DNA of 32,000 nucleotides from Candidatus Saccharimonadota bacterium (GCA_041661045.1 JBAZVE010000001.1:90001-122000); one strand, 5' to 3'. Shown: positions 3,278 through 17,339, counted from the stretch's first letter. Numbers and translations: made by a program. Notes: generated by a model not told the origin, from the sequence alone.

Positions 3278-4062
3278 ACCGCTACTTCAAATTTAATAAA
3301 AGGATCGTGTTCGTAGCCTACGAGTTCGAAGTCTTCAAACTTCAAATCCCAGAAAGGCTTTTTTGCGATTTTTAGGGTGGGGAGTTTTTTGGGGATGCGA
3401 GTGAGCTGCTCTTTCAGGCCCTCGATGTGGTTGAGGTAAATGTGCGCATCCCCCATGGTGTGGGTGAAAATTCCGGGCTCCAGTCCGCACTCCTGCGCCA
3501 CCATCATCATGAGGGCGGCGTAACTCGCGATATTGAAGGGCACCCCGAGCGCGATATCCGCACTGCGTTGGTAGAGTTGGCAGTCGAGGCGGCCTTTGAC
3601 CACATAAAACTGAAAGAACATGTGGCAAGGTGGCAGCGCCATTTTGTCGATCTCCCCCACATTCCAGGCGTTCACAATGAGCCGACGAGAATTGGGATTG
3701 GTTTTGATTTGGTCTATCACATTTTGGATTTGATCGATGTGGCGCCCATCCTTGCTTTCCCAGTCGCGCCACTGTTTTCCATACACGGGCCCCAATTCTC
3801 CGTTTTCATCCGCCCAGGCGTTCCAAATGGGCGTGTGCTGCACGAGATCGTCGTTGATGTTGGTGGACCCGCGCAGAAACCACAGCAATTCATACAAAAC
3901 GGCATCGAACTTCACTTTTTTTGTGGTGAGCAAAGGAAAACCCTCTCGAAGATCGTACTTGCGCTGCATTCCGAAGATCGAGAGGGTCCCGGTTCCAGTT
4001 CTGTCTTCCTTTTTTTCGCCCTTTTCAAGGACTTCTGCGACGAGTGAGAGGTAGTGGTGCAT
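3274..4062 (-). CDS. thyA: thymidylate synthase (ThyA type)
   Basis: [42 protein letters not shown] and [11 protein letters not shown] match ThyA. The start is placed at the internal ATG 4062, which aligns with canonical ThyA N-termini. The ORF track extends to 4149. Confidence 0.92.
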
Positions 4063-4120
4063 AAGGGGGGTGCCAACTTGGTGAGGCAAGATTAGCACCC
4101 CGATGTGGGTGGGGCAACCG

Positions 4121-4339
4121 TCAGTCCATACAGGAAAGGATTCCACCAAGAGGCAGCTGGGTATAACAATCTGTGACTTTATTTACTGTACTTTCTGGGA
4201 TATTCCGCGCCCTAAGGGCATCTCCAACAGACATCGCAATTCCTCTCAAATCGGCGGCTAATTCTGGTGACATTGGCATTGCCCCGTATTGAGTCTCATG
4301 GAGAAAGCGATCGGCGAGTGCATTGATTTGAGCAGTCAT
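4121..4339 (-). CDS. hypothetical small protein, 72 aa
   Basis: ORF sitting 19 nt downstream of the 375-aa ORF and 58 nt upstream of the thyA ATG, on the same strand. No motif recognised. Confidence 0.4.
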
Positions 4340-4358
4340 AAATTTTAGTGTTATGGAT

Positions 4359-5486
4359 TTAAGAAGTAATGAGGGCTTGGATTTTCTCGACTTGGGCGCT
4401 TATCCCAGGGTGGGCGAGAAGGGAGTTTTCCTTTGGGACATCCACAAAGCGGTAAGCTATATGATAACCCATTCCTCTTCCAAAGGACTCAATGTTTTTA
4501 CCAAGATTTTCGATGTGAAGGCTTGTTTCCCTGCACAAATCTGGGAGTAGGTTTGGGTGCCGCTCTTTTACAATAGCCAGAACCCTATGAAGGGTTTGCA
4601 TGAAAGGTATCTGGAATTCAGGGGAATGTACCTCAGGACTAAGCGTAACATTATATCGATGATCATCTTTCGGAAGCACGGTGGACAATACATAAGCCCC
4701 TAGTTTCGCACCTGAAAGTAACTGCTCTGACATCGTAAGGTTTGATACTGCATCTTTTATAAAAACCGCTCGGCGAGTACCAAGATAATGGTGTCGAAAT
4801 ACTTCATACTCTTCGTCCGTAATTTCTGTTATCAGTCGGGATGAAGGAAGTGCTTCTGCAATATGAAAACCTGTAGATGCATCATATGCAGTTGAGCTAG
4901 GTGAAAGATGCACGGAAAGGCCTCCATCATGCATCTCAACTAAACCTTGAACCAATCTTTCCACATGAGCATCGGGGATTTCTTCTAGTGCCATTGCCTC
5001 TCGGAGCCGTTTCCCAGGCGTGGGTTCGGAAATAATCCTACAATCTTTATAGGAGATTCCTAAGAGTCTTGCCCCCAGACTAGTCTCGCTGAGTACTCTT
5101 CTTACCCTAGCCTGTATCATGAAATTCATCTGCTGTGGTGTCAATCCTTTGTAAGGGATTAAATCTTCGCCTTTGAAAGTTTTTTGGACAAAGGGTTCTC
5201 CGCCTCGGTGTGAAATCAGTGTGTCTTTCCCTGTAAAGGTATGGGTTTCCTCTAAGATCTCTGTGGGCTGGGAACTCTCTGAGACTCCCCCATAAGTTAG
5301 TTTGTATTCATCAAGCAACCTTGCCAGTTTTGGATCGATTTTCCTCGATTGAGTGCGTCCTTTTTCGACTGACAGGGCTACCCCATCTTCTTTAAGTTTT
5401 ATGTAGGGCTGAACGGCAGTCCATTTTATCCTGCGTTGCAATTCTTCCTCCTGTTCCGCTTTTTCTGTTTTGACTAGTGTGTCCAT
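4359..5486 (-). CDS. hypothetical protein, 375 aa, no recognisable domain
   Basis: Long uninterrupted ORF with an ATG start 17 nt downstream of the 29-nt hairpin repeat. Confidence 0.65.
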   Translation of the reverse strand: MDTLVKTEKAEQEEELQRRIKWTAVQPYIKLKEDGVALSVEKGRTQSRKIDPKLARLLDEYKLTYGGVSESSQPTEILEETHTFTGKDTLISHRGGEPFVQKTFKGEDLIPYKGLTPQQMNFMIQARVRRVLSETSLGARLLGISYKDCRIISEPTPGKRLREAMALEEIPDAHVERLVQGLVEMHDGGLSVHLSPSSTAYDASTGFHIAEALPSSRLITEITDEEYEVFRHHYLGTRRAVFIKDAVSNLTMSEQLLSGAKLGAYVLSTVLPKDDHRYNVTLSPEVHSPEFQIPFMQTLHRVLAIVKERHPNLLPDLCRETSLHIENLGKNIESFGRGMGYHIAYRFVDVPKENSLLAHPGISAQVEKIQALITS

Positions 5487-5503
5487 AAATTTTTAGAATA
5501 AAA

Positions 5504-5532
5504 TAAATAAAAATCCCTCTTCTCAGAGGGCT
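5504..5532 (-). terminator. intrinsic-terminator-like hairpin, copy 1 of a 29-nt exact repeat
   Basis: The minus strand reads AGCCCTCTGAGAAGAGGGATTTTTATTTA. The stem is CCCTCT/AGAGGG with a GAGA (GNRA) loop, followed by a T-rich tract. It lies 5 nt after the stop of the 5538.. ORF and 17 nt before the ATG at 5486. Confidence 0.5.
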
Positions 5533-5537
5533 ACAGT

Positions 5538-6290
5538 TCAATGGCAAAGATGTTCTTTCTTAACAAAACGCAAGGACGGTAAAAAAGAACTGCCCACCTG
5601 AGGATTGCCTGCTGCTAATCCAGTAAATGGGGTGTTGCAACGCCGATTAAATGTTGCAATTGCTTGGGTATAATGTTCTGCCATGGCTTCATCAATTGGA
5701 ATTAATGTAATGTCCTGTGTGAGGAATCCGTGACCGTATCGAATGACCTTAAGTTCTGGAAAATAAACCCTCATTCCTGTCACTCCATAGTCACTTAAAT
5801 CGTGAGTTGCGATTTGAGCCTCTAGTAGATCTGAATCTAAGGCTGCAGCCTCTTTCAGCATCAGGTTGACATGCAAAATATTTTCTTCATCTGTATCAGC
5901 AAGGCATTGATTAAAAATTTGCGTATTGAGTGCAGATAGTCTTCGTGTAGAAATGATCGCAGCGTCTACATCATTTGCACTGAATTCATGCAATTTTTCC
6001 ATGGCTCTTTCGTGAGCTTCTTCACCTTTTGGATAAATAAGAAACGATGGATCCATATATGCGTCCACATCATCCCCTCTTAGTCTTAGCGCTATCACAG
6101 GGCGAATTTTTTCAAGAGGGACTTGTGCGTTATAAATTTTTCTGTGTTGCGGTTGGTATATGCCTTTCATAGTGTAGTGGGTTAAATAAAAATCCCTCTT
6201 CTCAGAGGGCTTAAAGGAGTTGAGTTTGATGTGAATTAAATGTGGCGCACGCGCCAGGCCCTCTGAATTGATTTCAAAGAGTTCCACCAT
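5538..6290 (-). CDS. hypothetical protein, start uncertain (ATG 6290 or ATG 6170; the ORF track uses TTG 6386)
   Basis: The frame is open from 6386 to 5538. The TTG at 6386 coincides with a TTGACT -35-like hexamer. Copy 2 of the terminator-like repeat lies in frame at 6183-6211, 12 nt upstream of the ATG at 6170. Confidence 0.55.
   Translation of the reverse strand: MVELFEINSEGLARAPHLIHIKLNSFKPSEKRDFYLTHYTMKGIYQPQHRKIYNAQVPLEKIRPVIALRLRGDDVDAYMDPSFLIYPKGEEAHERAMEKLHEFSANDVDAAIISTRRLSALNTQIFNQCLADTDEENILHVNLMLKEAAALDSDLLEAQIATHDLSDYGVTGMRVYFPELKVIRYGHGFLTQDITLIPIDEAMAEHYTQAIATFNRRCNTPFTGLAAGNPQVGSSFLPSLRFVKKEHLCH
6183..6211 (-). repeat. copy 2 of the 29-nt exact repeat (terminator-like hairpin plus T tract)
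   Basis: TAAATAAAAATCCCTCTTCTCAGAGGGCT on the plus strand is identical at 5504-5532 and 6183-6211. Confidence 0.85.
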
Positions 6291-6320
6291 TTTTGGGTGT
6301 TTTTTGTGGCGAAATTGTTC

Positions 6321-6386
6321 GTGACTTTTGAATTCATGCTTGCTATGATGTACTCGTACGATAGTACGGACCACGATATTAGTCAA
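6321..6386. promoter_or_regulatory. candidate overlapping divergent promoters with a GTAC-rich inverted repeat
   Basis: Plus strand: GTGACT (6321-6326), 17 nt, TGcTATGAT (6341-6349). Minus strand: TTGACT (6386-6381), 17 nt, TATCGT (6363-6358). Inverted repeat CGTAC-GATA-GTACG at 6355-6368, with GTAC at 6350, 6356 and 6364. Confidence 0.3.
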
Positions 6387-6391
6387 GCCCT

Positions 6392-6655
6392 ATGCGCCAA
6401 AACCACACTGCCCTCAAAAATATTTCAAAGACCTTTGTATTGGCGGAAAGTAAAAAAACGATGATGAAACTTTTGAGTGATCTCCTCACCCCCGCTGAAA
6501 TCCATGACATTCATGAACGGATTCTCATTATGCAAGAACTCTACAAAGGCAAACCTCAACGAGAGATTGCAAAGAAACTGGGCGTGAGCATCGCCAAAGT
6601 GAGCCGTGGCTCCCAAGTCCTGCAGTATGGAGAAGGAAGCTTTGACCCTTTATAA
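6392..6655 (+). CDS. TrpR-family (YerC/YecD-like) small helix-turn-helix protein
   Basis: LLTPAEIHDIHERILIMQELYKGKPQREIAKKLGVSIAKVSRGSQVLQYG matches the TrpR/YerC pattern LLTP.E..R..I..EL..G..QREI...LG.SIA..SRGS..L. Confidence 0.75.
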   Translation: MRQNHTALKNISKTFVLAESKKTMMKLLSDLLTPAEIHDIHERILIMQELYKGKPQREIAKKLGVSIAKVSRGSQVLQYGEGSFDPL

Positions 6656-6675
6656 TTTTATGTTAAAATAGATGT

Positions 6676-7392
6676 ATGAGTGGTAATGACAACGCAACTG
6701 GTTTATCCCCTTTCGATCCCGAAGATTTAGATTACGGCCCTGAGCCCGAGCTTGTTGAAGTGACTTTACGGTTTCCTGATTTGGGTTTTCAAGATGATCT
6801 CGAGGGTTCAGAGCAGCTTGCTTTCCATTCAATCATTGATCAACTTCGAGAGTTTGGGTTGAAATTTCAGCACCTTGCCCTTGATGGGACCTACAGCATG
6901 ACTGGAACGAACCTTAGCCCCGAGCAGTTCCAAGCGGTTGGGGCTTTTTTAAGAAAACTTAAGGATGACACCGTGCTCAGTCAAATCATCTCAACGCTAC
7001 AAGTCCTTCCCCAAGGGGACACTCCTCCGGATGGCGTTCCTCTCCTTATCCAAATAGATGGAGCGCCATTAACACAGGCGCAAGTGCGGGAGGTTCTTGG
7101 TTTTGTGGAAGACTTCGATTTGGACGCTGTTTCAGTCTGTGGCAGTCTTGATGGGCGCGCTGCCACCTTAGATGCTCTTGGCGATACGGACCTCCGAGAG
7201 TCCATGGAGACTTTATTGGGGGAGAGTTTTTCCTTTTCTGGCATTACGCTTCATGCTCCTGACGGGTTCTCACCTCTCGGGCATGACTACCTTAAGACCC
7301 TCTCTGGATGGCTTCGTATTCAGGGTGTTGGTGTCAGTACAAGTTTTTACTCCGTTCGGGCACCAGCAGAAAGCGAGACCGACTTTGAGTAG
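6676..7392 (+). CDS. hypothetical acidic protein, 238 aa
   Basis: ORF 20 nt downstream of the TrpR-like gene, probably in the same operon. The product is Asp/Glu-rich. The 3' end overlaps the convergent YbaK-like gene by 59 nt. Confidence 0.55.
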   Translation: MSGNDNATGLSPFDPEDLDYGPEPELVEVTLRFPDLGFQDDLEGSEQLAFHSIIDQLREFGLKFQHLALDGTYSMTGTNLSPEQFQAVGAFLRKLKDDTVLSQIISTLQVLPQGDTPPDGVPLLIQIDGAPLTQAQVREVLGFVEDFDLDAVSVCGSLDGRAATLDALGDTDLRESMETLLGESFSFSGITLHAPDGFSPLGHDYLKTLSGWLRIQGVGVSTSFYSVRAPAESETDFE

Positions 7393-7834
7393 CTGTAATA
7401 AAAGATTGGATGTCTTCGGCGGAGATGACTAGGGTGGCGGTGTTCACCAAGGGGTGACACTGCAAAGCCTCGCCGCGCAGAGTTTCGTCGAGGATGAGTT
7501 CCACTTGGTGAGTTTTGTCGTTGAAAAGCCCCAGAATGGTGACGGAGCCGGGCTCCACGCCGAGGTGTGTTTTCATAGCCTCCGCGGAGGCAAAATGGAG
7601 CTTGGTTTCGCCCAGTTCTTTTTCCAAAGCTTTCAAATCGGCGCGTTTGTCTTCTTTAATGGACACAATGTAATAGCGGCTTCCGTTTCGATTGGTGATG
7701 AAAAGATTTTTGATTTTTGCGCCGGGCATGGGCGGGCACAGAAGGTTCCCCTCTTCACAGGTGAAAACGGCGGGATGATCGAAGCGCTCGTACGATATAC
7801 CGTGCGCGTCTAAAAAGTTGAGAAGTTCTTGCAT
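7334..7834 (-). CDS. YbaK/ProX-type aminoacyl-tRNA deacylase domain protein
   Basis: MQELLNFLDAHGISYERFDHPAVFTCEE, KNLFITNRNG, LGVEPGSVTILGL and HPLVNTATLVI fit the YbaK/ProRS-associated editing domain. The start is set at ATG 7834, because the ORF-track extension to 8200 runs antisense into rarA. Confidence 0.78.
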   Translation of the reverse strand: MQELLNFLDAHGISYERFDHPAVFTCEEGNLLCPPMPGAKIKNLFITNRNGSRYYIVSIKEDKRADLKALEKELGETKLHFASAEAMKTHLGVEPGSVTILGLFNDKTHQVELILDETLRGEALQCHPLVNTATLVISAEDIQSFITATQSRSRFLLVPERSKNLY

Positions 7835-7882
7835 GGGCCAAGCATAGCATGATCTCCTGATTCGTGTATACTTCAAGCTGCT

Positions 7883-9007
7883 ATGGAGCCTCTTGCAGCC
7901 AAAATACGGCCCAAACAACTGGATGAGTTTTATGGGCAAACCCACCTGGTTGGACCCGGGAAACCTCTCCGCGTGGCGATGGAACAAAAACATCGGTTTT
8001 CCTTTGTTTTGTGGGGGCCGCCCGGTGTTGGAAAAACCACTTTGGCCCGAATGTACGCACAAAGCTTGGAGGCGCAGCTTTTTGAACTCTCCGCGGTTTC
8101 TGCCGGGAAAGCCGACATCAAAGCCATTATGGAGCTGGATTTTTTTGGCCAAGCCCGCGTTTTGTTTTTGGATGAAATCCATCGTTTCAATAAGGCTCAA
8201 CAGGATTTTCTTCTTCCGTTTGTGGAGAGTGGTGAACTCACTTTGATTGGTGCCACCACCGAGAATCCGAGTTTTGAAGTGATTCCGGCGCTGCTCTCAC
8301 GGTGTCGTGTTTTTGTTTTGAATCCATTGGGGAAAGAAGAGATGCAGGAGATTTTGAGTCGCACGGAAATTCCAATGGACGAGGAAGCACGGGATTGGCT
8401 GATTCAAATGGCGGATGGGGATGCGCGCCAAGCTCTCACGGTTTTGGAAAACACGCAGCAGCTCTTTAAAACGGTGACGGTGGAAAGCCTGAAAAATACG
8501 CTCCAATCTAAGTTTTTGCGTTACGACAAAAAGGGCGAGGAGCACTACAATATCATCAGTGCTTTTATTAAAAGTATGCGGGCGAGCCAGCCCGATGCCG
8601 CTTTGTATTATTTGGCCCGAATGATCGAATCCGGAGAGGACCCCAAGTTTATTGCGCGACGCATGGTGATTTTTGCGAGTGAAGACATTGGACTCGCCAT
8701 GCCCACCGCGCTGGTGGTGGCCAACGAGGTCTTTCGCGCAGTGGAAACCATTGGTCTTCCCGAATGCGCGCTCAATTTGGCTCACGGAGTCGCCTACCTT
8801 TCGCAGTGTAAAAAAGACCGGAGCGTGAATGATGCGCTCAAGGCCGCCATGGCCGATGCCGAGCAATACGGCAATTTGCCTGTACCCCTCATGCTCCGCA
8901 ACGCACCGACCAAACTCATGAAAGAGCTGGATTATGGCAAAGGTTATGAGAAATACTCCAAAGCAGATTTCCTTCCGGAAAAACTGAAGGGGAGGAAATA
9001 TCTTTAA
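7883..9007 (+). CDS. rarA: replication-associated recombination protein A (AAA+ ATPase RarA/MgsA)
   Basis: [22 protein letters not shown], Walker [23 protein letters not shown], and the C-terminal MgsA-type block [28 protein letters not shown]. Confidence 0.9.
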
Positions 9008-9016
9008 GTCGGATTT

Positions 9017-9856
9017 ATGGAATTGAATGAACGACCACTACTGCTTCTGGATGGGGACAATACCCTGTGGAAGTGGATGGAGTATGCGGTGCCCGCGTAT
9101 GAGGCGATGTGTGCTGTGATTGCGCAAATGGCCGGAAAGACGAAGATCGAAACGGCGGCGGCCATGAAGAGAGTTTACAGTCGAAAAAGGACCATTGAGA
9201 ATGTGCTGCTCATTCAAGGACTCAAGGAAGATGGCTTTTTTAATGGCGTAAGGAATTTTGATGAAAATGAAGCCATCCGTATCGCTATGCGAACATTTAG
9301 TCGTGTGCGCAGTCAGCATTTGCAGCTGTATCCCGGAGTGAAGGAAGTGATGGAAACGGCGCACAAAAAAGGGTGGCGGCAAATCATGCTCACCGACGCG
9401 CCTGGGCACCAAGCTCGCCGCCGGCTGGAGCGCACGGGCGTAGACCATTTGGTGGAATGTATTTTTGCCATGCCCACCGGTTCCGACTTACCCCCGTCCA
9501 AGGCTCGTTATCGTGGACTTCGGGAATCACCGATTCCTGTCTTTGAGGTCGAGCACGAAAAACCTTACACCGATTTGGAGGGGATTTTGAAGATGACGCG
9601 AGATCAAATCCGTGCACTTGTTTATATGTGGGGAGATAACGACAAAAAAGATATGGAATTGGCACGAAGATGGGGCATGCGTGGCCTTTTTGCCGTGTAC
9701 GGAGGTTCTGATCCTGATCTGAGCGCCCGCCTCCAACCCTTTGCACCCGAGAGCGTGCTTCGACGAAACAGCAGTCTCCTTGAGGCTGAATCGAGGAGCA
9801 GTCATGGTCTCATCACCCCCATCCATCATCCTTTTGAGGTTTTGAGCGTGCTGTAG
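9017..9856 (+). CDS. HAD-superfamily hydrolase
   Basis: Motif I LLLDGDNTLW (DxDxT) and a late acidic motif WGDNDKKDMELA. Confidence 0.65.
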   Translation: MELNERPLLLLDGDNTLWKWMEYAVPAYEAMCAVIAQMAGKTKIETAAAMKRVYSRKRTIENVLLIQGLKEDGFFNGVRNFDENEAIRIAMRTFSRVRSQHLQLYPGVKEVMETAHKKGWRQIMLTDAPGHQARRRLERTGVDHLVECIFAMPTGSDLPPSKARYRGLRESPIPVFEVEHEKPYTDLEGILKMTRDQIRALVYMWGDNDKKDMELARRWGMRGLFAVYGGSDPDLSARLQPFAPESVLRRNSSLLEAESRSSHGLITPIHHPFEVLSVL

Positions 9857-9878
9857 ATTGTCTGAAGAGACTTGCTGA

Positions 9879-11324
9879 TCAGCGCCCATATATCACATAG
9901 ACGGCTCCTGCATCAACGCTGGTACTGTTGTTTCCGGAGGCACCCACAAGGATGTCCGCCAGTCCATCTCCATTTAAATCTCCCGTGGCAACCTGGTTCG
10001 CCGCATAATCGTTTTCAGCCTCTCCAAGCAATTTTATAGCAGAAGGTGAAGAAAGCCGGAAGGAGCTGAATCTCTCCTCTTGACCTCTTACGATGTAAAC
10101 TGCTCCGGCATCATTAGCGGCTTCATCCTGACCCACAGCTCCTATGATGATTTCACTCCACCCGTCTCCATCCTGGTCTGCCACGGCAATCGTTTTCCCA
10201 GCGTAATCACCCATATCTTCTCCTGTGAATTTTACGACACTGGTGTCGCTCAACACCATGGAACTTAATGTGGTAGAACTTCCATAAATCAAATATACGG
10301 CCCCTGCATCTACGCCTGCATCATCATTATAACTAGGTATTAAAATTTCTCCGAAACCGTCTCTATTGATGTCCCCGACCTTTAATTGTTCACACAAACA
10401 ATCTCCCATGGCTTCTCCCGTAAGTTGAACCATACTTGCGTCACTCAGGAAATTTTCACCGCTGAGGTCGCTTGATCCATAAATCAAATACACTGCTCCA
10501 GCTGCATCTCCCCCGTCATCATTACCTGATGCTGAAGTTAAGATATCTTCAAGACCATCTCCATTGATGTCTCCAATGGCTATGGAACTCCCTGCATGAT
10601 CAAAAGGATTTTCTCCCACCCAAGTTGCCGTACTGGCGTCCAATAAACTCATCGATGTGAGCTCTGAGTCTTGGCCTTTTATAAGGTAAATTTTGCCGTC
10701 GTAGTTGTCGACATCCGAATAACCGTATCCTTTCGCGCTCACCACAATGTCATCATAACCATCTCCATCTGTATCCCCAACACTCACGGCAGATCCAGCT
10801 GCATCCGATGCTCCTTCACCGGTAAACTTTGGCAAGGTTCCATCCAGAAAATCTAAAGATCCTGTCCGGCCCGCGTGTCCATAAATAATATAAATCGCTC
10901 CCGCGTTCCCTCCGGCGTCATCATCTCCTTGATCTGCCACGACTACATCTTCAAAACCATCTGCGTTCAAATCACCCACCGCAAGCGCGCCGCCCAGGTA
11001 ACCTGAGGACCTCAAACTCGTGTCTCCTGTCCATACTGCAATGCTACTCCCAGAAAGGATGGTGTCACCTCGATATCGTCCTGCCTTTCCCCGTGCTATA
11101 TAAATAGTGTTTTTGCTGGGGGCGGCAAGGATGGATTCGTCGTAACCATCGCCGTTCAAATCACCCGTAGCTATGTCTGTTCCTACTGATGCATCATAAC
11201 TTGGCCCCTGAAATTGGGCGAATGACTCAAGGGAAAGTGTCGCGGCTTGCGTCAAGGGAATGATAAGGAGGCCTGTCAAAATTAGAAGAACGGGAACTCT
11301 AAGAGCTTTTTGTGTAGAGATCAT
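9879..11324 (-). CDS. secreted FG-GAP repeat protein (predicted seven-bladed beta-propeller)
   Basis: N-terminal signal-like segment VPVLLILTGLLIIPLTQAA. Seven GD(L/I/T)NxDGxxD(I/V)(L/V)V calcium-loop repeats are spaced about 60 aa apart, each followed by AGAVY(L/I)IYG-like strands. Confidence 0.85.
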   Translation of the reverse strand: MISTQKALRVPVLLILTGLLIIPLTQAATLSLESFAQFQGPSYDASVGTDIATGDLNGDGYDESILAAPSKNTIYIARGKAGRYRGDTILSGSSIAVWTGDTSLRSSGYLGGALAVGDLNADGFEDVVVADQGDDDAGGNAGAIYIIYGHAGRTGSLDFLDGTLPKFTGEGASDAAGSAVSVGDTDGDGYDDIVVSAKGYGYSDVDNYDGKIYLIKGQDSELTSMSLLDASTATWVGENPFDHAGSSIAIGDINGDGLEDILTSASGNDDGGDAAGAVYLIYGSSDLSGENFLSDASMVQLTGEAMGDCLCEQLKVGDINRDGFGEILIPSYNDDAGVDAGAVYLIYGSSTTLSSMVLSDTSVVKFTGEDMGDYAGKTIAVADQDGDGWSEIIIGAVGQDEAANDAGAVYIVRGQEERFSSFRLSSPSAIKLLGEAENDYAANQVATGDLNGDGLADILVGASGNNSTSVDAGAVYVIYGR

Positions 11325-11375
11325 AGTGATGAATAAAGATTTTTACACAAACATTTGACCTCAAATGCTTTATGG

Positions 11376-11428
11376 TTGTCAATTGATCTGACGAAGATGG
11401 AGCAGCAAACTGGAAGAAATTCGGACTT
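11376..11428 (-). repeat. degenerate copy 1 of the tRNA-Gly 3' end plus flank (att-like)
   Basis: The minus strand reads AAGTCCGAATTTCTTCCAGTTTGCTGCTCCA followed by TCTTCGTCAGATCAATTGACAA. CCAGTTTGCTGCTCCA matches the tRNA's CCCGTTACCTGCTCCA at 13 of 16 positions without gaps. The post-CCA TTCGTC is shared with the tRNA flank ACATTCGTCGTG. Confidence 0.6.
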
Positions 11429-11431
11429 GGT

Positions 11432-11827
11432 TTAATCTTTAGAAGGTCTCGGTAGGCTCGTGAGATATACTCTGATTTTTTGCTCATCGCCTGCTGCACC
11501 TCCATTTTCCTCGACCCTTTCATAAGTTGCAAAATGACCCCCGTCAGGCTCTGCTAAGGCCCCTCTATTTGCAAAACCAATAGTAAATCCCCCGATTTTC
11601 ACACCTTTAGGGATTCTTGGCCCCTTCCAAGACAATTCATATACTGTCGTAACCAATTGCGCGACTCTCTCTCTAATACGCTGTAGCGCTGCTTCTTGAT
11701 GAGAAAGGGGGGCAGTAGCATCCTTGTAACCTGGTTTCCCCGTAAGATCAACTGGCGTTACGGGTCTATTTGTCGCCCCAGAGGAAATCTTTCTTAAGAG
11801 AACATCGCGTACTTCATCAGAAGGCAT
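11432..11827 (-). CDS. hypothetical protein, 131 aa
   Basis: ORF lying between the two tRNA-Gly-like repeat copies. No motif recognised. Confidence 0.5.
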   Translation of the reverse strand: MPSDEVRDVLLRKISSGATNRPVTPVDLTGKPGYKDATAPLSHQEAALQRIRERVAQLVTTVYELSWKGPRIPKGVKIGGFTIGFANRGALAEPDGGHFATYERVEENGGAAGDEQKIRVYLTSLPRPSKD

Positions 11828-11872
11828 ACCAAAACAATTAGGTTAGGTATAACTAAGCATAAACTCTATATT

Positions 11873-11915
11873 TTGTCAATGGAGCAGCAAGTAAGACCAA
11901 AATTTTCGGGCCCGT
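11873..11915 (-). repeat. degenerate copy 2 of the tRNA-Gly 3' end (att-like)
   Basis: The minus strand reads ACGGGCCCGAAAATTTTGGTCTTACTTGCTGCTCCA followed by TTGACAA. It shares the ACGGG, CGA, TTAC and CTGCTCCA blocks with the tRNA T-arm and acceptor end, and TGGAGCAGCAA (plus strand, 11 nt exact) with copy 1. Confidence 0.55.
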
Positions 11916-11931
11916 TACTTCTTGAGAGATC

Positions 11932-13041
11932 TCATGAATGTAAAGAGCTTGAAAAGCTTTTTGAATCAACTGAATAAGGCCAAAATTCTTCTCGATCCGT
12001 TACTTCTTTAGAAACCTCCCGTAAGAGTGCGAGTAAGGCAACTACGAGTCTCGCACTTGATTTATCGTCTTCATGATCACTTCTTGCGCCTCGTAAGCAG
12101 TTTATAGCTATACTTGCTCTACGACCAACATAGCCAAATTGGCGATCAGTACCGTAACAGAGTTCGTACATTCTTTGTATGAACTGCCTTTTTTCATTGT
12201 CTCCTGTATCTTCCTTAGCTATTAAATCCCACAATTCTATAAGTAAAGTCCTGCCAAGGTTCAGTGCAAACAGATGTTCCCCCTGAGAATCTCCGTGTGT
12301 TTTTTTCAAATCTGCCAAATTCATCATCGGCATCGCCGCATATTGTACAAAAGGTGGATATGCGTCCACAACTTTTTTTGGTGCGCCACTCTCTTTCGTG
12401 GTTTCTCCAAATGACAGTAATTTTTGCTTCAACTCTACAAAAAAGCTTGCATCTTCTGAATGTTGTGCCAAATAGCTTTCTTTCCCTTTTTCTAGCATTA
12501 GATCAAATAGTGCTTTGGAAGAAGTCCCTTCAGAAGAAAATTCCTCAAGCATTTCATCAAAACTTAATCTTAAAAAGTCTTCCATTCGTGGAAATTTTTG
12601 CTTAATCTTAAAAAGAACATCTTCAGGATCCAAATCCCTTGTGTCTATAGACCATCCATCATTTGGCCCCGAAAGCCCTACCTTCCCATCCAAAATGTCC
12701 TGGATGCCACTTGCATGTCTTGCTAGTTGCCTTCCCATGTCAGCAAGCACAACTTGTTCAGGAGATCTATAAGTGATTTTTTCGATACTGTCGGCCTCTA
12801 TCCCTGGGTATAAAATCCTTAAAGCTGTGGGTAGATCGATACCTGAATCCCTGCTTGCAGTTTGTAATGCAATTGAGTAGGTTGTTTTTCGCCCATTGAA
12901 TGCGCGTGATACAAAGGCATCAGCTGTTTGTGGGAATTGTTGACGAAAGGATTGAAGAGATTCTTGAGATGGTAATTCGAGCACAAGTATACCGTCTTCT
13001 CTTGTCTCACAAATTGGTGTAGTAGCTCCAAGGCCTTTCAT
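11932..13041 (-). CDS. hypothetical protein, about 369 aa, no recognisable domain
   Basis: Long ORF. The start is placed at ATG 13041 (MKGLGATT), because the upstream 90 nt of the ORF-track model contains a consensus promoter whose predicted TSS falls on this ATG. Confidence 0.6.
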   Translation of the reverse strand: MKGLGATTPICETREDGILVLELPSQESLQSFRQQFPQTADAFVSRAFNGRKTTYSIALQTASRDSGIDLPTALRILYPGIEADSIEKITYRSPEQVVLADMGRQLARHASGIQDILDGKVGLSGPNDGWSIDTRDLDPEDVLFKIKQKFPRMEDFLRLSFDEMLEEFSSEGTSSKALFDLMLEKGKESYLAQHSEDASFFVELKQKLLSFGETTKESGAPKKVVDAYPPFVQYAAMPMMNLADLKKTHGDSQGEHLFALNLGRTLLIELWDLIAKEDTGDNEKRQFIQRMYELCYGTDRQFGYVGRRASIAINCLRGARSDHEDDKSSARLVVALLALLREVSKEVTDREEFWPYSVDSKSFSSSLHS

Positions 13042-13047
13042 GTATTT

Positions 13048-13112
13048 ATGATAGCACATATATTTTCTATATGTCAAAGCGATTTGACATATATGCAATA
13101 AGCTGTTATAAT
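13048..13112. promoter_or_regulatory. back-to-back divergent consensus promoters whose -35 boxes form a perfect palindrome
   Basis: Palindrome TATATGTCAAA-gcga-TTTGACATATA at 13068-13093. Plus strand: TTGACA (13084-13089), 17 nt, TGtTATAAT (13104-13112). Minus strand: TTGACA (13077-13072), 18 nt, TGcTATCAT (13056-13048). Confidence 0.65.
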
Positions 13113-13134
13113 TATGTACATTTAATCTCATAGT

Positions 13135-13785
13135 ATGGAAGGTATACTCGATATCTGTTCAAGGCTTGCAGGAGCACCTATTGTTTACCGTGAAGGTACC
13201 AGAGAGTTGATGCGTATGTATATCGCCAAAGGAGGTACAGCTTCTGCTTATAATGTCATCCTACAGGGCCATACCTTTGGCGTACAGAAGGATGGCCGTA
13301 TTACAGGAGACCGTTCTGGCCACATTGAGCGCTTACTTCGAGTTGTTTCTTCAGAAACACCTGACCAAGCTACTGCTTTAGATATTCTTCAGGAGATTCT
13401 CTCTCTTATGAGGAGTGCACGAGAGGCAGTTGGTAGGGTCGTTCCTGTATCTGAAAAACCAGCAGATCCTGTTAGATTTCTAGGTCAATTCCCAAGATTT
13501 AAACCTGAAATTGGAAATCGTTTGAATGAGATGCTTGAGGCAAACCCAAGAGTTAAAATGGTTCCTCGGCACGATCTCTCTCCTGACGGTCGACTCCAAC
13601 GCTTACTCCAAGATCATCGTCTTCTTCTTTTACATGATGCGGGGACTCAAGTTATAGCTCAAGAAGTTGCTGATGCAGAGACATTTCTACAAGTCGCTGG
13701 TGGCGTTGGGTATTATCTTGCCGTGCCAAAAGATGTTGATGGGCTTTTTGATGATTTCTACGCAGTTGCGACGGGAAATGCGTGA
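13135..13785 (+). CDS. hypothetical protein, 216 aa
   Basis: ORF starting 23 nt after the consensus TATAAT box. No motif recognised. Confidence 0.6.
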   Translation: MEGILDICSRLAGAPIVYREGTRELMRMYIAKGGTASAYNVILQGHTFGVQKDGRITGDRSGHIERLLRVVSSETPDQATALDILQEILSLMRSAREAVGRVVPVSEKPADPVRFLGQFPRFKPEIGNRLNEMLEANPRVKMVPRHDLSPDGRLQRLLQDHRLLLLHDAGTQVIAQEVADAETFLQVAGGVGYYLAVPKDVDGLFDDFYAVATGNA

Positions 13786-14023
13786 GAGTACCGTACGGAA
13801 TGTCATCACTGCTGAATATGTAAAAGGTACCTACTCCGAAGCCTTTTCTTTCTCCACGAAAAGTCAGCATTAAATCCAGCGTTCTGGAAATAGCGAGGGC
13901 CTCTTCTACCAACTCTCTTTCTGAGGCGTACATGGATTCATTCACATGAAGCTCAATCCCTTCTGCAGAACCCACGCCATAAGTGATCCAGTGCTTTGAA
14001 GCTTCTATGTGAGCAGGATCCAT
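13652..14023 (-). CDS. possible small hypothetical protein, perhaps a 3'-degraded gene
   Basis: An ATG at 14023 (MDPAHIEASKHW...) lies just downstream of the tRNA-Gly 3' end. The last ~45 codons overlap the 13135..13785 ORF and look compositionally non-coding (Q/H/R/L-rich). The ORF-track N-terminus runs through the tRNA and is spurious. Confidence 0.3.
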   Translation of the reverse strand: MDPAHIEASKHWITYGVGSAEGIELHVNESMYASERELVEEALAISRTLDLMLTFRGERKGFGVGTFYIFSSDDIPYGTLTHFPSQLRRNHQKAHQHLLARQDNTQRHQRLVEMSLHQQLLEL

Positions 14024-14094
14024 TGGTTCAAATCCATAAAAACGCCCTTCTCGGATGGTACTCGCTTCACCCTCTGTGATTTCACGACGAATGT

Positions 14095-14169
14095 TGGAGC
14101 AGGTAACGGGAATCGAACCCGTATTTCCGCCTTGGCAAGGCGGCATAATAACCATTATATGATACCTGC
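14095..14169 (-). tRNA. tRNA-Gly (anticodon GCC), CCA encoded
   Basis: The reverse complement reads GCAGGTATCATATAATGGTTATTATGCCGCCTTGCCAAGGCGGAAATACGGGTTCGATTCCCGTTACCTGCTCCA. The acceptor stem is GCAGGTA/TACCTGC. The anticodon stem is CCGCC/GGCGG with loop TTGCCAA. The T-arm is ACGGG-TTCGATT-CCCGT, and the discriminator is U. Confidence 0.92.
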
Positions 14170-14361
14170 GGCAGAGGGGATTTTAGCCAAAAATGCATCC
14201 TGTAGCAAGCTGCAAAAAAACTGGTTTCTTTCGCTCTCCAAGTTAGGTTTGCATAAACAACGGCTGATGAGCTACTTTTAAAGTATAAACGGCTTGCTTA
14301 AGCCACAAATTGAATGGAAATCTGTGCCCGGGCACATGTATTTTTGCGAAGCTCCAAATCA

Positions 14362-14389
14362 TTGACGCTTTGCGCTTTTGTGCTAGAAT
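14362..14389 (+). promoter_or_regulatory. candidate sigma70 promoter giving a leaderless or near-leaderless mRNA
   Basis: TTGACG (14362-14367), 16 nt, TGcTAGAAT (14381-14389). The ATG at 14398 is only 9 nt after the -10 box. Confidence 0.5.
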
Positions 14390-14397
14390 CTCCCTCT

Positions 14398-15153
14398 ATG
14401 CCAACTCCTGCGGAAACCGATCAGAAGGAAGAGATTGCCATTCTCATCGCAGATGAGATTGAGCATACCAGTACATTTCCCCTTTTTTCCAATACCAGGG
14501 GTAAGTTGGGTGTTTTGTCGCCTGGCTTGATGGATGAAAGCATCCGTGTCCGAGATTTTTTTAGCCTTATAGGCCTCGGCATAGAAAGGCTTGTAGAAAA
14601 GTGGGGGTCGGAAGCTCCTCAGTGGAGTTATGAACGCCTTGGGAATTATGTGGAGGAAAAGGACGCCAATGTGAATGTGGTTTTGCGGACCTACGGAGGA
14701 AAAGAATTTCGGGTCTGGAGCCTGATGCATCTCTTGGATAAATGGAACGCCGAAGGACGGGTGACACGAGGTTTTGTACCAGAGTATGCGGCCAGTGCAG
14801 GTGCTACTGTTTTCGCCCACACGGGAGAAAGACATATGGGATATACGGCACATTCATTTCATCATTTAGCCAGCAATGAGAAAACGGGAGAAATTTATGA
14901 TGGACCTAATCATATCAAACACTACCTTAAGCAGATTAGTATGCTTCTGCGCAGAGAAGTTCGCTTGGAGGAGCTTAAGACCGATGGGCCTGATAAAGCT
15001 GTCTATTTTGGGGGGTGGCGACTGCAAACGGATGGCGTAGCGAAGGCTTATGTGGGACCGGATAAGCTTTTGGATCACTTCCGTCAAACAACAGGAATCA
15101 ACCCCGAGGATTACCCGGAGTTGAAAGCTGTGTTTGAATTGAAGGCAGTTTAG
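14398..15153 (+). CDS. divergent ClpP/S14-like serine peptidase-fold protein (tentative)
   Basis: NVNVVLRTYGGKEF...YAASAGATVFAHTGERHMGYTAHSFHHLAS parallels ClpP's YINSPGG...GQAASMGAFLL.AG..GKR...P.S..MIHQP in order and spacing. The start is set at ATG 14398 because a promoter lies inside the ORF-track extension from 14314. Confidence 0.45.
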   Translation: MPTPAETDQKEEIAILIADEIEHTSTFPLFSNTRGKLGVLSPGLMDESIRVRDFFSLIGLGIERLVEKWGSEAPQWSYERLGNYVEEKDANVNVVLRTYGGKEFRVWSLMHLLDKWNAEGRVTRGFVPEYAASAGATVFAHTGERHMGYTAHSFHHLASNEKTGEIYDGPNHIKHYLKQISMLLRREVRLEELKTDGPDKAVYFGGWRLQTDGVAKAYVGPDKLLDHFRQTTGINPEDYPELKAVFELKAV

Positions 15154-17339
15154 AAGTCGTATCCGTCGCTTGGAGCGGCGGGTGCGGCGGGGCCTTCCGG
15201 CTTGCGAGCGGGTGCCGGAGCGGGGGCATCTTGGTAGAACTCTTTCATCGAAAGGTTGTAACGACCTTGTTCGTCGATCTTGAGGAGTTTTACGCGGACT
15301 TTGTCGCCCACTTTCACCACATCTTCCACCTTGTTCACACGGAAAGGACGGAGTGCGGAAATGTGCACCAATCCATCTTTACCAGGAACGAATTCTACAA
15401 AGGCTCCGAAGTCCATGATTTTCACCACGGTTCCCTCGAATTCTTCACCCGGAGTGGGTTCGTATACAATTGATTTCACCCAGTTGGCCGCCTTGGTTCC
15501 CGCTTCCTGATTTGGAGCGGTGATGATGACGAGACCGGTTTGTTCGATGTCCATTTCCACGCCACATTCGGCGGTGATCTTTTGAATGGTTTCTCCACCC
15601 TTACCAATCACATCACGAATGTAATCCGGATTGATTTGGATCTTCATGATGATGGGTGCGTATTTGCTGAGTTCACCACGAGGAGCGGGCAATACGGTCT
15701 GCATTTCGGCGAGCATTTGATTACAAGCGGTGGCGGCTTTTGACAGCGCCTCTCCCATCATTTGCAGAGTAATTCCCTTCACTTTGATGTCCATTTGCAG
15801 AGCGGTGATTCCGTCCGCGGTGCGGGCCACCTTAAAGTCCATGTCTCCGGCAAAGTCTTCAAAAGACTGAATGTCGGTGAGGATTTTGTAAGCTCCGGTT
15901 CCGGACTGTTTGAATTCATCGCTGCACACAAGACCCATGGCCACGGCGGAAACCGGCTTTTTGAGCGGTACTCCGGCGTCCATGAGTGAAAGGGTTGATC
16001 CACAGACGGAAGCCATGGAGCTGGATCCGTTACAAGTCATGATTTCGGACACCACAAGAATGGTGTATGGAAAATCTTCTTTGGCGGGAAGTACGGGAAG
16101 CAAGGCTCGTTCTGCGAGTGCTCCGTGTCCAATTTCACGACGGGAAGCGCCGCGAAGTCCTTTGATTTCTCCTACGGAATACGGTGGGAATACATAATAG
16201 TGAATGTATCGTTTTTCGGTGTCCACTTCCATGGAGTCGATGATTTGCGCATCGCCGGGCGCACCGAGTGTGGTGAGCGTGAGCGCTTGCGTTTCTCCTC
16301 GTTGGAAGAGAGCGGATCCGTGCGTTCGAGGCATGAGTCCCACTTCGATGCTGATCTTTCGAACTTCATCGAGGCGGCGACCGTCGAGCCGTTGGTCTCG
16401 CTCTAAAATATTGTTTCGCATGGAGTTGTCCATGACTTTTTCAAGTCCGGCCAGGAGAGCTCCTTTGGTGTAGGTTTCCGCTTCGATTTCTGCGGCAAAA
16501 TGCGCGAGCACTTTATCTTGAAGTGCGTGGATCGCGTCTTTGATTTCTTTCTTGGATCCTCCTTTGTAGATCGCGAGGTCGTCTGCGGTGAGCACGCCTG
16601 CAACCAGATTGATGATCTCGTCGGAGGCTTTGGCCACCGTGTACGAGCGGAGCGTAGGATTGATTTTTTGTACGAGTTGCATTTGGAAAGCACAGATTTC
16701 CTTGATGGTCTTGTGCGCGAGTTCCAGCGCTTGCAACATTTGTTCGTCCGTGAGCTCATTGGCTCCGGCTTCCACCATGGTGATGGCTTCCATTGTTCCG
16801 GCCACAAGCAAATCGAGCTGAGCCCCTTCCATTTCTTCAAAGGTGGGGAACACAATGAATTGATTGTTCTTCATTCCAATGCGCACTCCGGCCAAAGGCC
16901 CGGCAAAAGGCAAACCGGCCACGAGCATGGCGGCGGACATCCCTGTTATTGCGAGCACTCCGGTCTCATTCACGAGGTCAGCGGAAAGAATAGTAGCAAT
17001 CGCCTGAGTCTCGTTGGTGATTCCTTTTGGGAAGAGGGGGCGAATGGGACGATCGATGATACGAGCCTTTAAAATGGCTTCATCGCTGCTGCGGCCATCT
17101 CGTTTCATGAAGCGAGATCCTTTGATCTTTCCGGAGGCGTAGTAGCGTTCTTGGTATTCGATAGTAAGAGGGAAGAAATCCGCGTCGGGTTTTCCTTCTT
17201 CGGCCATCATGGCGGTGCAGAGCACGATGCTCTCCCCCATTTGAATGGTAACGGCCCCGTTCGCTTGCAAAGCAAGTCGCCCGGTTTCGAGCTTAATCTT
17301 GCGACCGGCAAGTTCGGTTTCAACAGTTTGTATAGACAT
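15150..17339 (-). CDS. pnp: polyribonucleotide nucleotidyltransferase (PNPase)
   Basis: 729 aa with two RNase PH-like halves, a KH region (IRDVIGKGGETIQKI) and an S1 domain (EGTVVKIMDFGAFVEFVPGKDGLVHIS). Confidence 0.95.
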   Translation of the reverse strand: MSIQTVETELAGRKIKLETGRLALQANGAVTIQMGESIVLCTAMMAEEGKPDADFFPLTIEYQERYYASGKIKGSRFMKRDGRSSDEAILKARIIDRPIRPLFPKGITNETQAIATILSADLVNETGVLAITGMSAAMLVAGLPFAGPLAGVRIGMKNNQFIVFPTFEEMEGAQLDLLVAGTMEAITMVEAGANELTDEQMLQALELAHKTIKEICAFQMQLVQKINPTLRSYTVAKASDEIINLVAGVLTADDLAIYKGGSKKEIKDAIHALQDKVLAHFAAEIEAETYTKGALLAGLEKVMDNSMRNNILERDQRLDGRRLDEVRKISIEVGLMPRTHGSALFQRGETQALTLTTLGAPGDAQIIDSMEVDTEKRYIHYYVFPPYSVGEIKGLRGASRREIGHGALAERALLPVLPAKEDFPYTILVVSEIMTCNGSSSMASVCGSTLSLMDAGVPLKKPVSAVAMGLVCSDEFKQSGTGAYKILTDIQSFEDFAGDMDFKVARTADGITALQMDIKVKGITLQMMGEALSKAATACNQMLAEMQTVLPAPRGELSKYAPIIMKIQINPDYIRDVIGKGGETIQKITAECGVEMDIEQTGLVIITAPNQEAGTKAANWVKSIVYEPTPGEEFEGTVVKIMDFGAFVEFVPGKDGLVHISALRPFRVNKVEDVVKVGDKVRVKLLKIDEQGRYNLSMKEFYQDAPAPAPARKPEGPAAPAAPSDGYDF

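Follow-up and report, generated by a model that had tools for sequence, protein, structure and literature searches.

How does a group of orphan genes come to lie directly behind a tRNA gene when no recombinase is recognisable next to it? This question is raised by a stretch of 32,000 nucleotides (GCA_041661045.1 JBAZVE010000001.1:90001-122000; "the window" means this whole stretch), in which an island of four orphan open reading frames (ORFs) begins directly 3' of an intact tRNA-Gly(GCC) gene, at position 14095. Along the strand of the tRNA the order is tRNA-Gly, o127, o216, o399, copy 3, o131, copy 2 and an FG-GAP repeat protein, copies 2 and 3 being degenerate sequences that resemble the 3' end of the tRNA (Table 1). 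An earlier note on this DNA had read the arrangement as the footprint of site-specific integration into the tRNA 3' end, apparently twice in tandem. On recheck, its placement of the tRNA gene, its quoted strings, coordinates and counts and the match of copy 2 to the tRNA end at 13 of 16 positions were all correct, and so was the spacing of the copies from the preceding stop codons (3 nt and 16 nt; ORFs 11432-11827 and 11932-13131, both on the minus strand).

Bacteria of the Candidate Phyla Radiation (CPR), to which the window belongs, have tiny genomes and are thought to be poor in mobile elements. A hotspot with recognisable junctions shows the entry point and the route of strain-specific genes, which here are mostly orphans and surface proteins. 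The explanation that we favour, and that we consider probable, is that the island consists of two integrase-less cassettes flanked by attachment (att) sites at a decayed integration hotspot of the tRNA-Gly(GCC) 3' end, with a family of large serine recombinases (LSR) as the likeliest mobiliser.

The tRNA-Gly end in related genomes

The window is part of a Peribacteria/Peregrinibacteria chromosome, from an uncultured bacterium of groundwater. A look-up of its PNPase (15150-17339, minus strand) as an exact protein gave no match; the protein shares 91% identity with PNPases of Peribacteria metagenome-assembled genomes, the Logan contig L020 matches positions 3559-15804 at 100% identity, and the o216 protein was also found on a JGI contig of 1,316,577 nt. 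For comparison we used PNPase-anchored loci from about 20 related genomes, which are named here by L-numbers and of which L001 is the nearest relative. These loci have in common a backbone of corA-rpsO-pnp-tRNAGly, followed by a variable part and then by thyA-folA-xthA-VIT1-tRNAPhe; conservation of this order was seen in ~15 genomes. The variable part between the tRNA and thyA spans ~5-8 kb in L008, L009 and L013 and ~10 kb in the window, which is well beyond the 2.7 kb that the earlier note had delimited, and the variable zone also includes the 5' side of the tRNA. An empty tRNA-Gly site, which that note had proposed to look for, is present in L012, where thyA lies 94 nt past the tRNA. The proteins encoded in the variable part are mutually unrelated between genomes, and the content of the slot differs in every genome. 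For the zone between copy 2 and thyA, recurrence is limited to HAD, MgsA and a few others, and to L003 and L025.

Several of these loci bear on the position of the junctions. L010 and L029 appear as an empty and an occupied version of the site, which share an identical 12-nt flank. In L029 the tRNA is followed by an 88-aa ORF, by a site of the M type described below with GCTCCA, and then by GTAAAATAACAGG, and in L010 the tRNA is followed by GTAAAATAACAG and then by the end of the contig. L001 and L025 are 93% identical up to the CCA of the tRNA and then diverge, and their homology resumes exactly at the GCTCCA of the L001 relic that corresponds to copy 2. In this relic, L001 4944-4988 is 89% identical over 45 nt to window positions 11434-11390, which lie within copy 2; the genes on either side of it, a 247-aa ORF before and AstE after, are unrelated to those beside copy 2. 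No sequence in the window matches the displaced tRNA end and flank of L014 (CCGCTCCA joined to TTGACTAAATAATAG) better than copy 3, the score of 34 being reached by 0/200 shuffles. It is because of this comparative evidence, conservation of copy 2 in L001 and the match of copy 3 to L014, that we consider the copies credible. Duplicates of the tRNA end, 19 nt long and located 120-175 nt 3' of the tRNA, are exact in L003 and L025 and carry one mismatch in L014. A flank of the S-type kind that follows the CCA in the window (Table 1) was also observed after copy 2, after the relic copies of L001 and L025, and after the tRNA of L005.

The empty site, the differing content, the breakpoints that fall on relics and the recombinase found at the same tRNA end in relatives (next section) bear out integration into the tRNA-Gly 3' end in this lineage. 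In the model that we propose, tRNA-Gly(GCC), which lies shortly after rpsO-pnp, would provide at its 3' end a hotspot for site-specific integration.

Between the tRNA-Gly and its 19-nt end copy, a conserved non-coding insert of 120-175 nt (X) is present in L025 (12933-13110), in L014 (12433-12607) and partly in L003 (12364-12483). It carries a terminator-like hairpin and a second hairpin, the stem of which differs between L025 and L014 with pairing kept. Insert X has no Rfam match and may represent either a gene for a small RNA or an integrated element of miniature size. When we considered the tRNA flank of the window as a remnant of the 157-nt X insert of L025/L014, the similarity was not significant.

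Copy 2 and the serine recombinase elements of relatives

In line with what the earlier note had reported, none of the window ORFs tested matched a Pfam recombinase, integrase or transposase, and Phage_integrase had no match in the window. The recombinase of L002 left no tblastn trace there, and a 480-520-aa protein of the Resolvase + Recombinase + Zn_ribbon type is absent from it. Among the relatives, an LSR of 487-491 aa abuts tRNA-Gly(GCC) in L002, L006, L011, L049 and L050. Resolvase, Recombinase and Zn_ribbon_recom domains are present in this enzyme, the ORF of which terminates 12 nt within the tRNA-Gly. The LSR DNA of L002 and L006 is 90% identical; against the PNPase of the window, the PNPases of these two genomes reach only 75-91% identity each. 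A relative of the LSR with 67% identity is located at tRNA-Gln in L051.

In 4/4 genomes checked (L002, L049, L050, L051) a pair of 92-nt inverted repeats with 98-100% identity to each other encloses the LSR gene; the two arms of one genome hardly differ, and those of different genomes are divergent. Each of these repeats begins with the last 6 nt of the respective tRNA, which are GCTCCA for tRNA-Gly and CAGCCA for tRNA-Gln. Outside the distal repeat we found a ~35-nt site, designated M (TTTAAAnTAAGTCCGAACnTCnTCATAGAGGCA), which is a loose mimic of the T-arm and acceptor strand of the tRNA. The LSR family is widespread in CPR and many of its members reside on contigs of ~1.7-2.0 kb, which suggests an invertible or multi-copy module. 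In the literature searched, we found no description of an LSR gene bracketed by such 92-nt inverted repeats, and came across neither this locus nor any CPR serine recombinase that targets tRNA genes.

When the five M+core 41-mers were compared with the window on both strands, copy 2 was the best ungapped match to all of them, in one register, with 27, 26, 26, 24 and 23 identities out of 41; the value of 27 was reached by 1.3% of 300 shuffles (p≈0.013). The distance from TTCTTC to the core is 9 nt in both copy 2 and M. Conversely, when a profile was made from copy 2, it picked up tRNA-Gly ends as well as the M sites of L002, L006, L049 and L051. The M sites match copy 2 at 23-27/41 positions and the tRNA at 12-17/41. 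Since M+core is matched better than the tRNA, we read copy 2 as an attR-type junction, which would be composed of the P arm of the element (M, the mimic of the T-arm and acceptor strand), of GCTCCA as the 6-nt core and of the chromosomal flank from before the insertion. According to this reading copy 2 was probably imperfect from the start, which explains its loose tRNA likeness alongside its good conservation. The crossover core is likely to be the last 6 nt of the tRNA, GCTCCA. A core of this length fits serine integrases, because their common cores measure 5-8 bp, and tyrosine integrases at tRNA sites share 25-76 bp (PMC8092301). Because copy 2 matches the M+core of LSR elements at the same tRNA end, the LSR family, which could have acted in trans or from a since-lost element, appears to be the likeliest mobilising enzyme.

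For the earlier claim of a tRNA 3'-end footprint laid down twice in tandem, these data mean that the relic-bounded cassettes stand, but that decay of a copy of this tRNA does not by itself account for copy 2. They also bear on the idea that the copies are the remains of complete duplicate tRNA-Gly genes in tandem and not att sites at all. L013 does carry a weak second tRNA-like sequence 250 nt past its tRNA-Gly (Rfam 29.6 bits), as such a history would leave behind. However, only 3' portions are present in the copies, their flank types are those expected of att junctions, and copy 2 fits the M site of the elements better than the tRNA does. We therefore regard decayed tandem tRNA genes as very improbable.

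A number of observations weigh against the favoured explanation. In a blastn search of the window with the LSR element, including its 92-nt arms, nothing was found, and among the best 120 members of the LSR family (at least 53% identity to the L002 protein) none resides on the 1.3-Mb contig that carries the locus, on which more distant recombinases may still be encoded. M is inverted relative to the tRNA in the LSR elements but copy 2 is direct, and the attR reading therefore assumes a second, direct M at the far end of the element. Copy 3 is weakly M-like (13-19/41), and part of the region upstream of it is repeated inside o399; a 22-nt string that recurs there weakened the suggestion that copy 3 reaches back to the anticodon loop. 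The variability on the 5' side of the tRNA, and the exchange of the FG-GAP and AstE genes beyond copy 2 without a right-side relic, reveal that further processes are at work. Finally, the signal within the window is marginal. When the 3' half of the tRNA with 20 nt of flank was aligned locally to the window, copy 2 scored 28, an unrelated site scored 27, and the score of copy 2 was reached by 7.5% of 200 dinucleotide shuffles; copy 3 was outside the top matches of this alignment. An nhmmer profile of tRNA-Gly 3' halves recovered neither copy. Copies 2 and 3 are the sole occurrences in the whole window of the 12-nt string TTGCTGCTCCAT and of TTGACAA. At window-wide scale, the 12-mer that these two copies have in common is not unusual. 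With milder gap costs and shuffling of the local region, the alignment of the tRNA and its flank with copy 2 scored 39, which was reached by 0/500 shuffles, and copy 3 aligned with the L001 tRNA plus flank at p=0.01 (local shuffling). On the window alone, the repeat similarity described in the earlier note thus comes close to what shuffled controls yield, whereas both copies are supported by the related genomes.

It might be argued from these weak window-only statistics that the region is simply prone to recombination by illegitimate or homologous exchange, and that the tRNA-like strings are coincidental or belong to a regulatory or processing element, such as a TTGACA promoter/terminator module. 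The bare 8-mer CTGCTCCA is present 6 times in the window, a repeat scan yields numerous short families of a similar kind, variability extends to the 5' side of the tRNA, and TTGACA boxes follow both copies. However, a promoter scan does not call these boxes, and no terminators were found by scan at the copies. In addition, related genomes preserve the copies in the same register, the synteny breakpoints lie exactly at GCTCCA, and the occupied and the empty site share their 12-nt flank. We consider it quite unlikely that chance or conservation unrelated to att function accounts for the copies.

A different question is whether the site is a relic or still in use. The tRNA-Gly end could act like the attI site of an integron, at which cassettes made up of an ORF and an M-like site are shuffled in trans by an LSR encoded elsewhere, with the sites under selection. 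The identity of copy 2 between the window and L001 exceeds that of the surrounding DNA although both of its neighbours differ, and in the window, in L001 and in L029 the stop codon of the cassette is the first triplet of the M-like site. Some cassettes hold just one ORF, which encodes 131 aa in the window, 88 aa in L029 and 247 aa in L001, and the wide occurrence of the LSR family in CPR, often on ~1.8-kb contigs, suggests a multi-copy or mobile enzyme gene. In contrast, no recombinase was found in the window ORFs tested, copy 3 is poorly M-like, no cassette is common to any two genomes so that movement is unseen, and the orthologous site of L025 (copy B) is decayed, which argues against selection on the site. 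We judge a live platform of this kind to be unlikely. A broader version of the idea, which we rate as doubtful, is an undescribed CPR system in which an LSR targets the last 6 nt of a tRNA (Gly or Gln), possibly from a self-invertible segment, and loads and unloads M-core cassettes, the island of the window being a working integron-like array. Such a live array serviced in trans may exist, but without direct support from the window. In the explanation that we favour, two att-flanked cassettes at a decayed hotspot, the cassettes would now be immobile.

A tyrosine integrase was observed next to a similar tRNA end on a viral contig. A scan of viral contigs for the tRNA end gave two matches, one of which is a phage tRNA array and irrelevant here. 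In the other, L023 (353-1642; IMG/VR UViG_3300045988_092741), such an integrase is followed ~130 nt beyond by a 28-nt tRNA-Gly-like 3' end (GCGGGTTCGACTCCCGTTACCTGCTCCA) with no complete tRNA, which looks like an attP or attR site.

Proposed order of insertion, the tRNA allele and the island genes

Copy 3 forms the boundary between cassette 1 and cassette 2. In our model, cassette 2 (o131), closed by copy 2, would be the older one. Cassette 1 (o127, o216, o399) would be closed by copy 3, which may represent the same kind of att relic as copy 2, and its arrival probably coincided with that of the tRNA-Gly allele now present and possibly with that of o279. The tRNA-Gly of the window is identical to the alleles of L005, L006 and L014, which are more distant relatives. 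Compared with the allele shared by L001, L025, L002 and L003, it has ~8 differences, distributed over the full length of the gene. The pnp gene is nearest to this latter group as far as its stop codon, and no recombination breakpoint within pnp that might account for the foreign tRNA allele was found. With its allele of the distant-relative type the present tRNA therefore itself looks imported, and the comparison suggests that the tRNA gene was replaced horizontally. In copy 3 the allele is ACTTGC, as in the sister genomes, and not the ACCTGC of the window, and the flank is the TTGACA that follows the tRNA in L001; copy 3 may be a remnant of either the resident tRNA end or an att site of earlier date.

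The spacer between pnp and the tRNA (14170-15153) was also compared, with L013 and L015 included. It is empty in most relatives, holds a 172-aa ORF in L001 and L025 and an MFS transporter in L006, and contains o279 in the window. Since o279 has no counterpart in most relatives, the 5' side of the tRNA is variable as well, and integration at the 3' end is therefore not the sole process at this locus.

The island has a GC content of 0.42 as compared with 0.49 elsewhere, and the GC content at third codon positions (GC3) of its ORFs is 0.29-0.40 as compared with ~0.57 for core genes. For all four ORFs the own reading frame scores highest, with codon scores near zero. None of the four has a match in Pfam, PHROGs, PADLOC or NCBIfam, so that the HMM searches of the enclosed ORFs that the earlier note had recommended yielded nothing, and o216 has no relative besides itself among 5.8 billion proteins. 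Residues ~131-375 of o399 (11932-12669, the C-terminal 245 residues) belong to a family of ~10 representatives of ~250 aa each, one of which lies in a chromosomal context without a nearby tRNA; residues 14-127 resemble a 127-aa protein of Peregrinibacteria. The AlphaFold model of the C-terminal domain (pLDDT 88.9) is mostly helical with one beta-hairpin and has no significant Foldseek match in PDB or BFVD. The earlier note had left room for one of the island proteins being the recombinase. We found no evidence for this, since o399 has no recombinase likeness and the confident model of its C-terminal domain is unmatched in solved structures.

The convergent ORFs o127 and o216 overlap by 134 nt (13652-13785), and within the overlap the codon scores slightly favour the frame of o216, which makes the true end of o127 uncertain. 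Gene callers start o127 at 14155, inside the tRNA. Both of the divergent promoters between o216 and o399 (Table 1) carry a TG extension, and an in-frame ATG at 13041 lies ~7 nt beyond the end of the -10 box on the minus strand; the mRNA of o399 may therefore be leaderless.

An FG-GAP repeat protein is encoded just beyond the last M-like relic in both the window (9879-11324, minus strand) and L029 (15425-16597); that of the window is lineage-specific. SLH-domain proteins are recurrent in variable regions (L015, L029), and the slot seems to collect cell-surface proteins. In L049 (1-6035) the 5' side of tRNA-Gly has xthA and tRNA-Phe instead of pnp, and the segment between the two tRNAs is therefore rearranged relative to the usual backbone.

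Table 1. Positions of the features discussed; those in other genomes carry the genome name
Feature	Position	Strand	Remark
tRNA-Gly(GCC), attachment site	14095-14169	minus	ARAGORN; Rfam 64.7 bits; allele comparison
post-CCA flank ACATTCGTCGTGAAATCA, S-type	14077-14094	minus	contains TTCGTC; flank comparison
o279, orphan ORF between pnp and tRNA	14314-15153	plus	locus comparison
o127, orphan ORF	13652-14035	minus	no match in Pfam, PHROGs, PADLOC, NCBIfam
o216, orphan ORF	13135-13785	plus	GC3 0.29
divergent sigma-70-like promoters between o216 and o399	13048-13112		12/12 and 11/12 consensus, in 18-nt palindrome
o399 ORF	11932-13059/13131	minus	called as 375 aa
copy 3, degenerate att relic (putative) ...ACGGG..CCGAA..TTACTTGC[TGC]TCCA, flank TTGACAAAATATAG	11866-11920 (11915-11880)	minus	L014 match
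o131, orphan ORF, cassette 2	11432-11827	minus	stop TAA is first triplet of copy 2 element
copy 2, attR-type relic (putative): M-like arm (TAAACCAAGTCCGAATTTCTTCCAGTTTGCT), core GCTCCA, flank TCTTCGTCAG..TTGACAA	11376-11438 (11428-11398)	minus	L001 and M-site matches
rest of variable zone, copy 2 to thyA	4150-11375		FG-GAP protein, HAD, MgsA, tRNA-edit domain, TrpR-like, three orphans
repeat-bracketed LSR segment	L002 12339-14070		
repeat-bracketed LSR segment	L050 3744-5464		
repeat-bracketed LSR segment	L049 148-2029		
repeat-bracketed LSR segment	L051 3739-5458		

Comparison with known systems

For the window itself this is mainly an annotation result: the four ORFs are recently acquired accessory genes and not part of the core. 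Beyond the window, a candidate enzyme family and candidate attB/attP sequences are now available. With tRNA-linked islands and prophage remnants (attL/attR) the locus shares the tRNA 3' end, a putative partial tRNA-like repeat at the distal border, an atypical composition, absence in relatives and a tandem stack. In contrast to them, it has no integrase, its cargo is limited to one to three orphan genes, it is carried by a CPR bacterium whose genome measures ~1.3 Mb, and its repeats are far more degenerate than the 25-76-bp cores of tyrosine integrases at tRNA sites (PMC8092301). Like integron cassette arrays, it is made up of compact units of ORF and site at one attachment point, the cargo of which varies between strains. 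Unlike integrons, it lacks an IntI tyrosine recombinase, palindromic attC sites and a common Pc promoter, and its sites mimic the 3' half of a tRNA; on inspection, copies 2 and 3 have no conserved hairpin in the window.

The enzyme of the relatives, with its Resolvase, Recombinase and Zn-ribbon domains and a short 6-nt junction core, resembles the large serine integrases of the phage type (Bxb1, phiC31). Serine integrases usually target and disrupt protein-coding genes (PMC8092301). Here, unlike in Bxb1/phiC31-type integrases, the enzyme sits at the final bases of a tRNA gene as its target, and the LSR gene is placed between near-perfect inverted repeats.

A further point of comparison is a class of elements that lack recombination genes of their own. 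Cis-mobilizable elements (CIMEs) are integrase-less and att-flanked and accrete next to integrative and conjugative elements, for instance in the ICESt1 family of Streptococcus thermophilus. Unlike in CIMEs, we observed the autonomous partner in other genomes only, its enzyme is an LSR and not a tyrosine recombinase, and mobilisation is hypothetical here. As in CIMEs, two relic-closed segments without recombination or transfer genes lie in tandem at the att site of a related autonomous element. Taken together, the island is of a known kind, and the nearest named concepts are att-flanked island remnants and CIME-like accretion.

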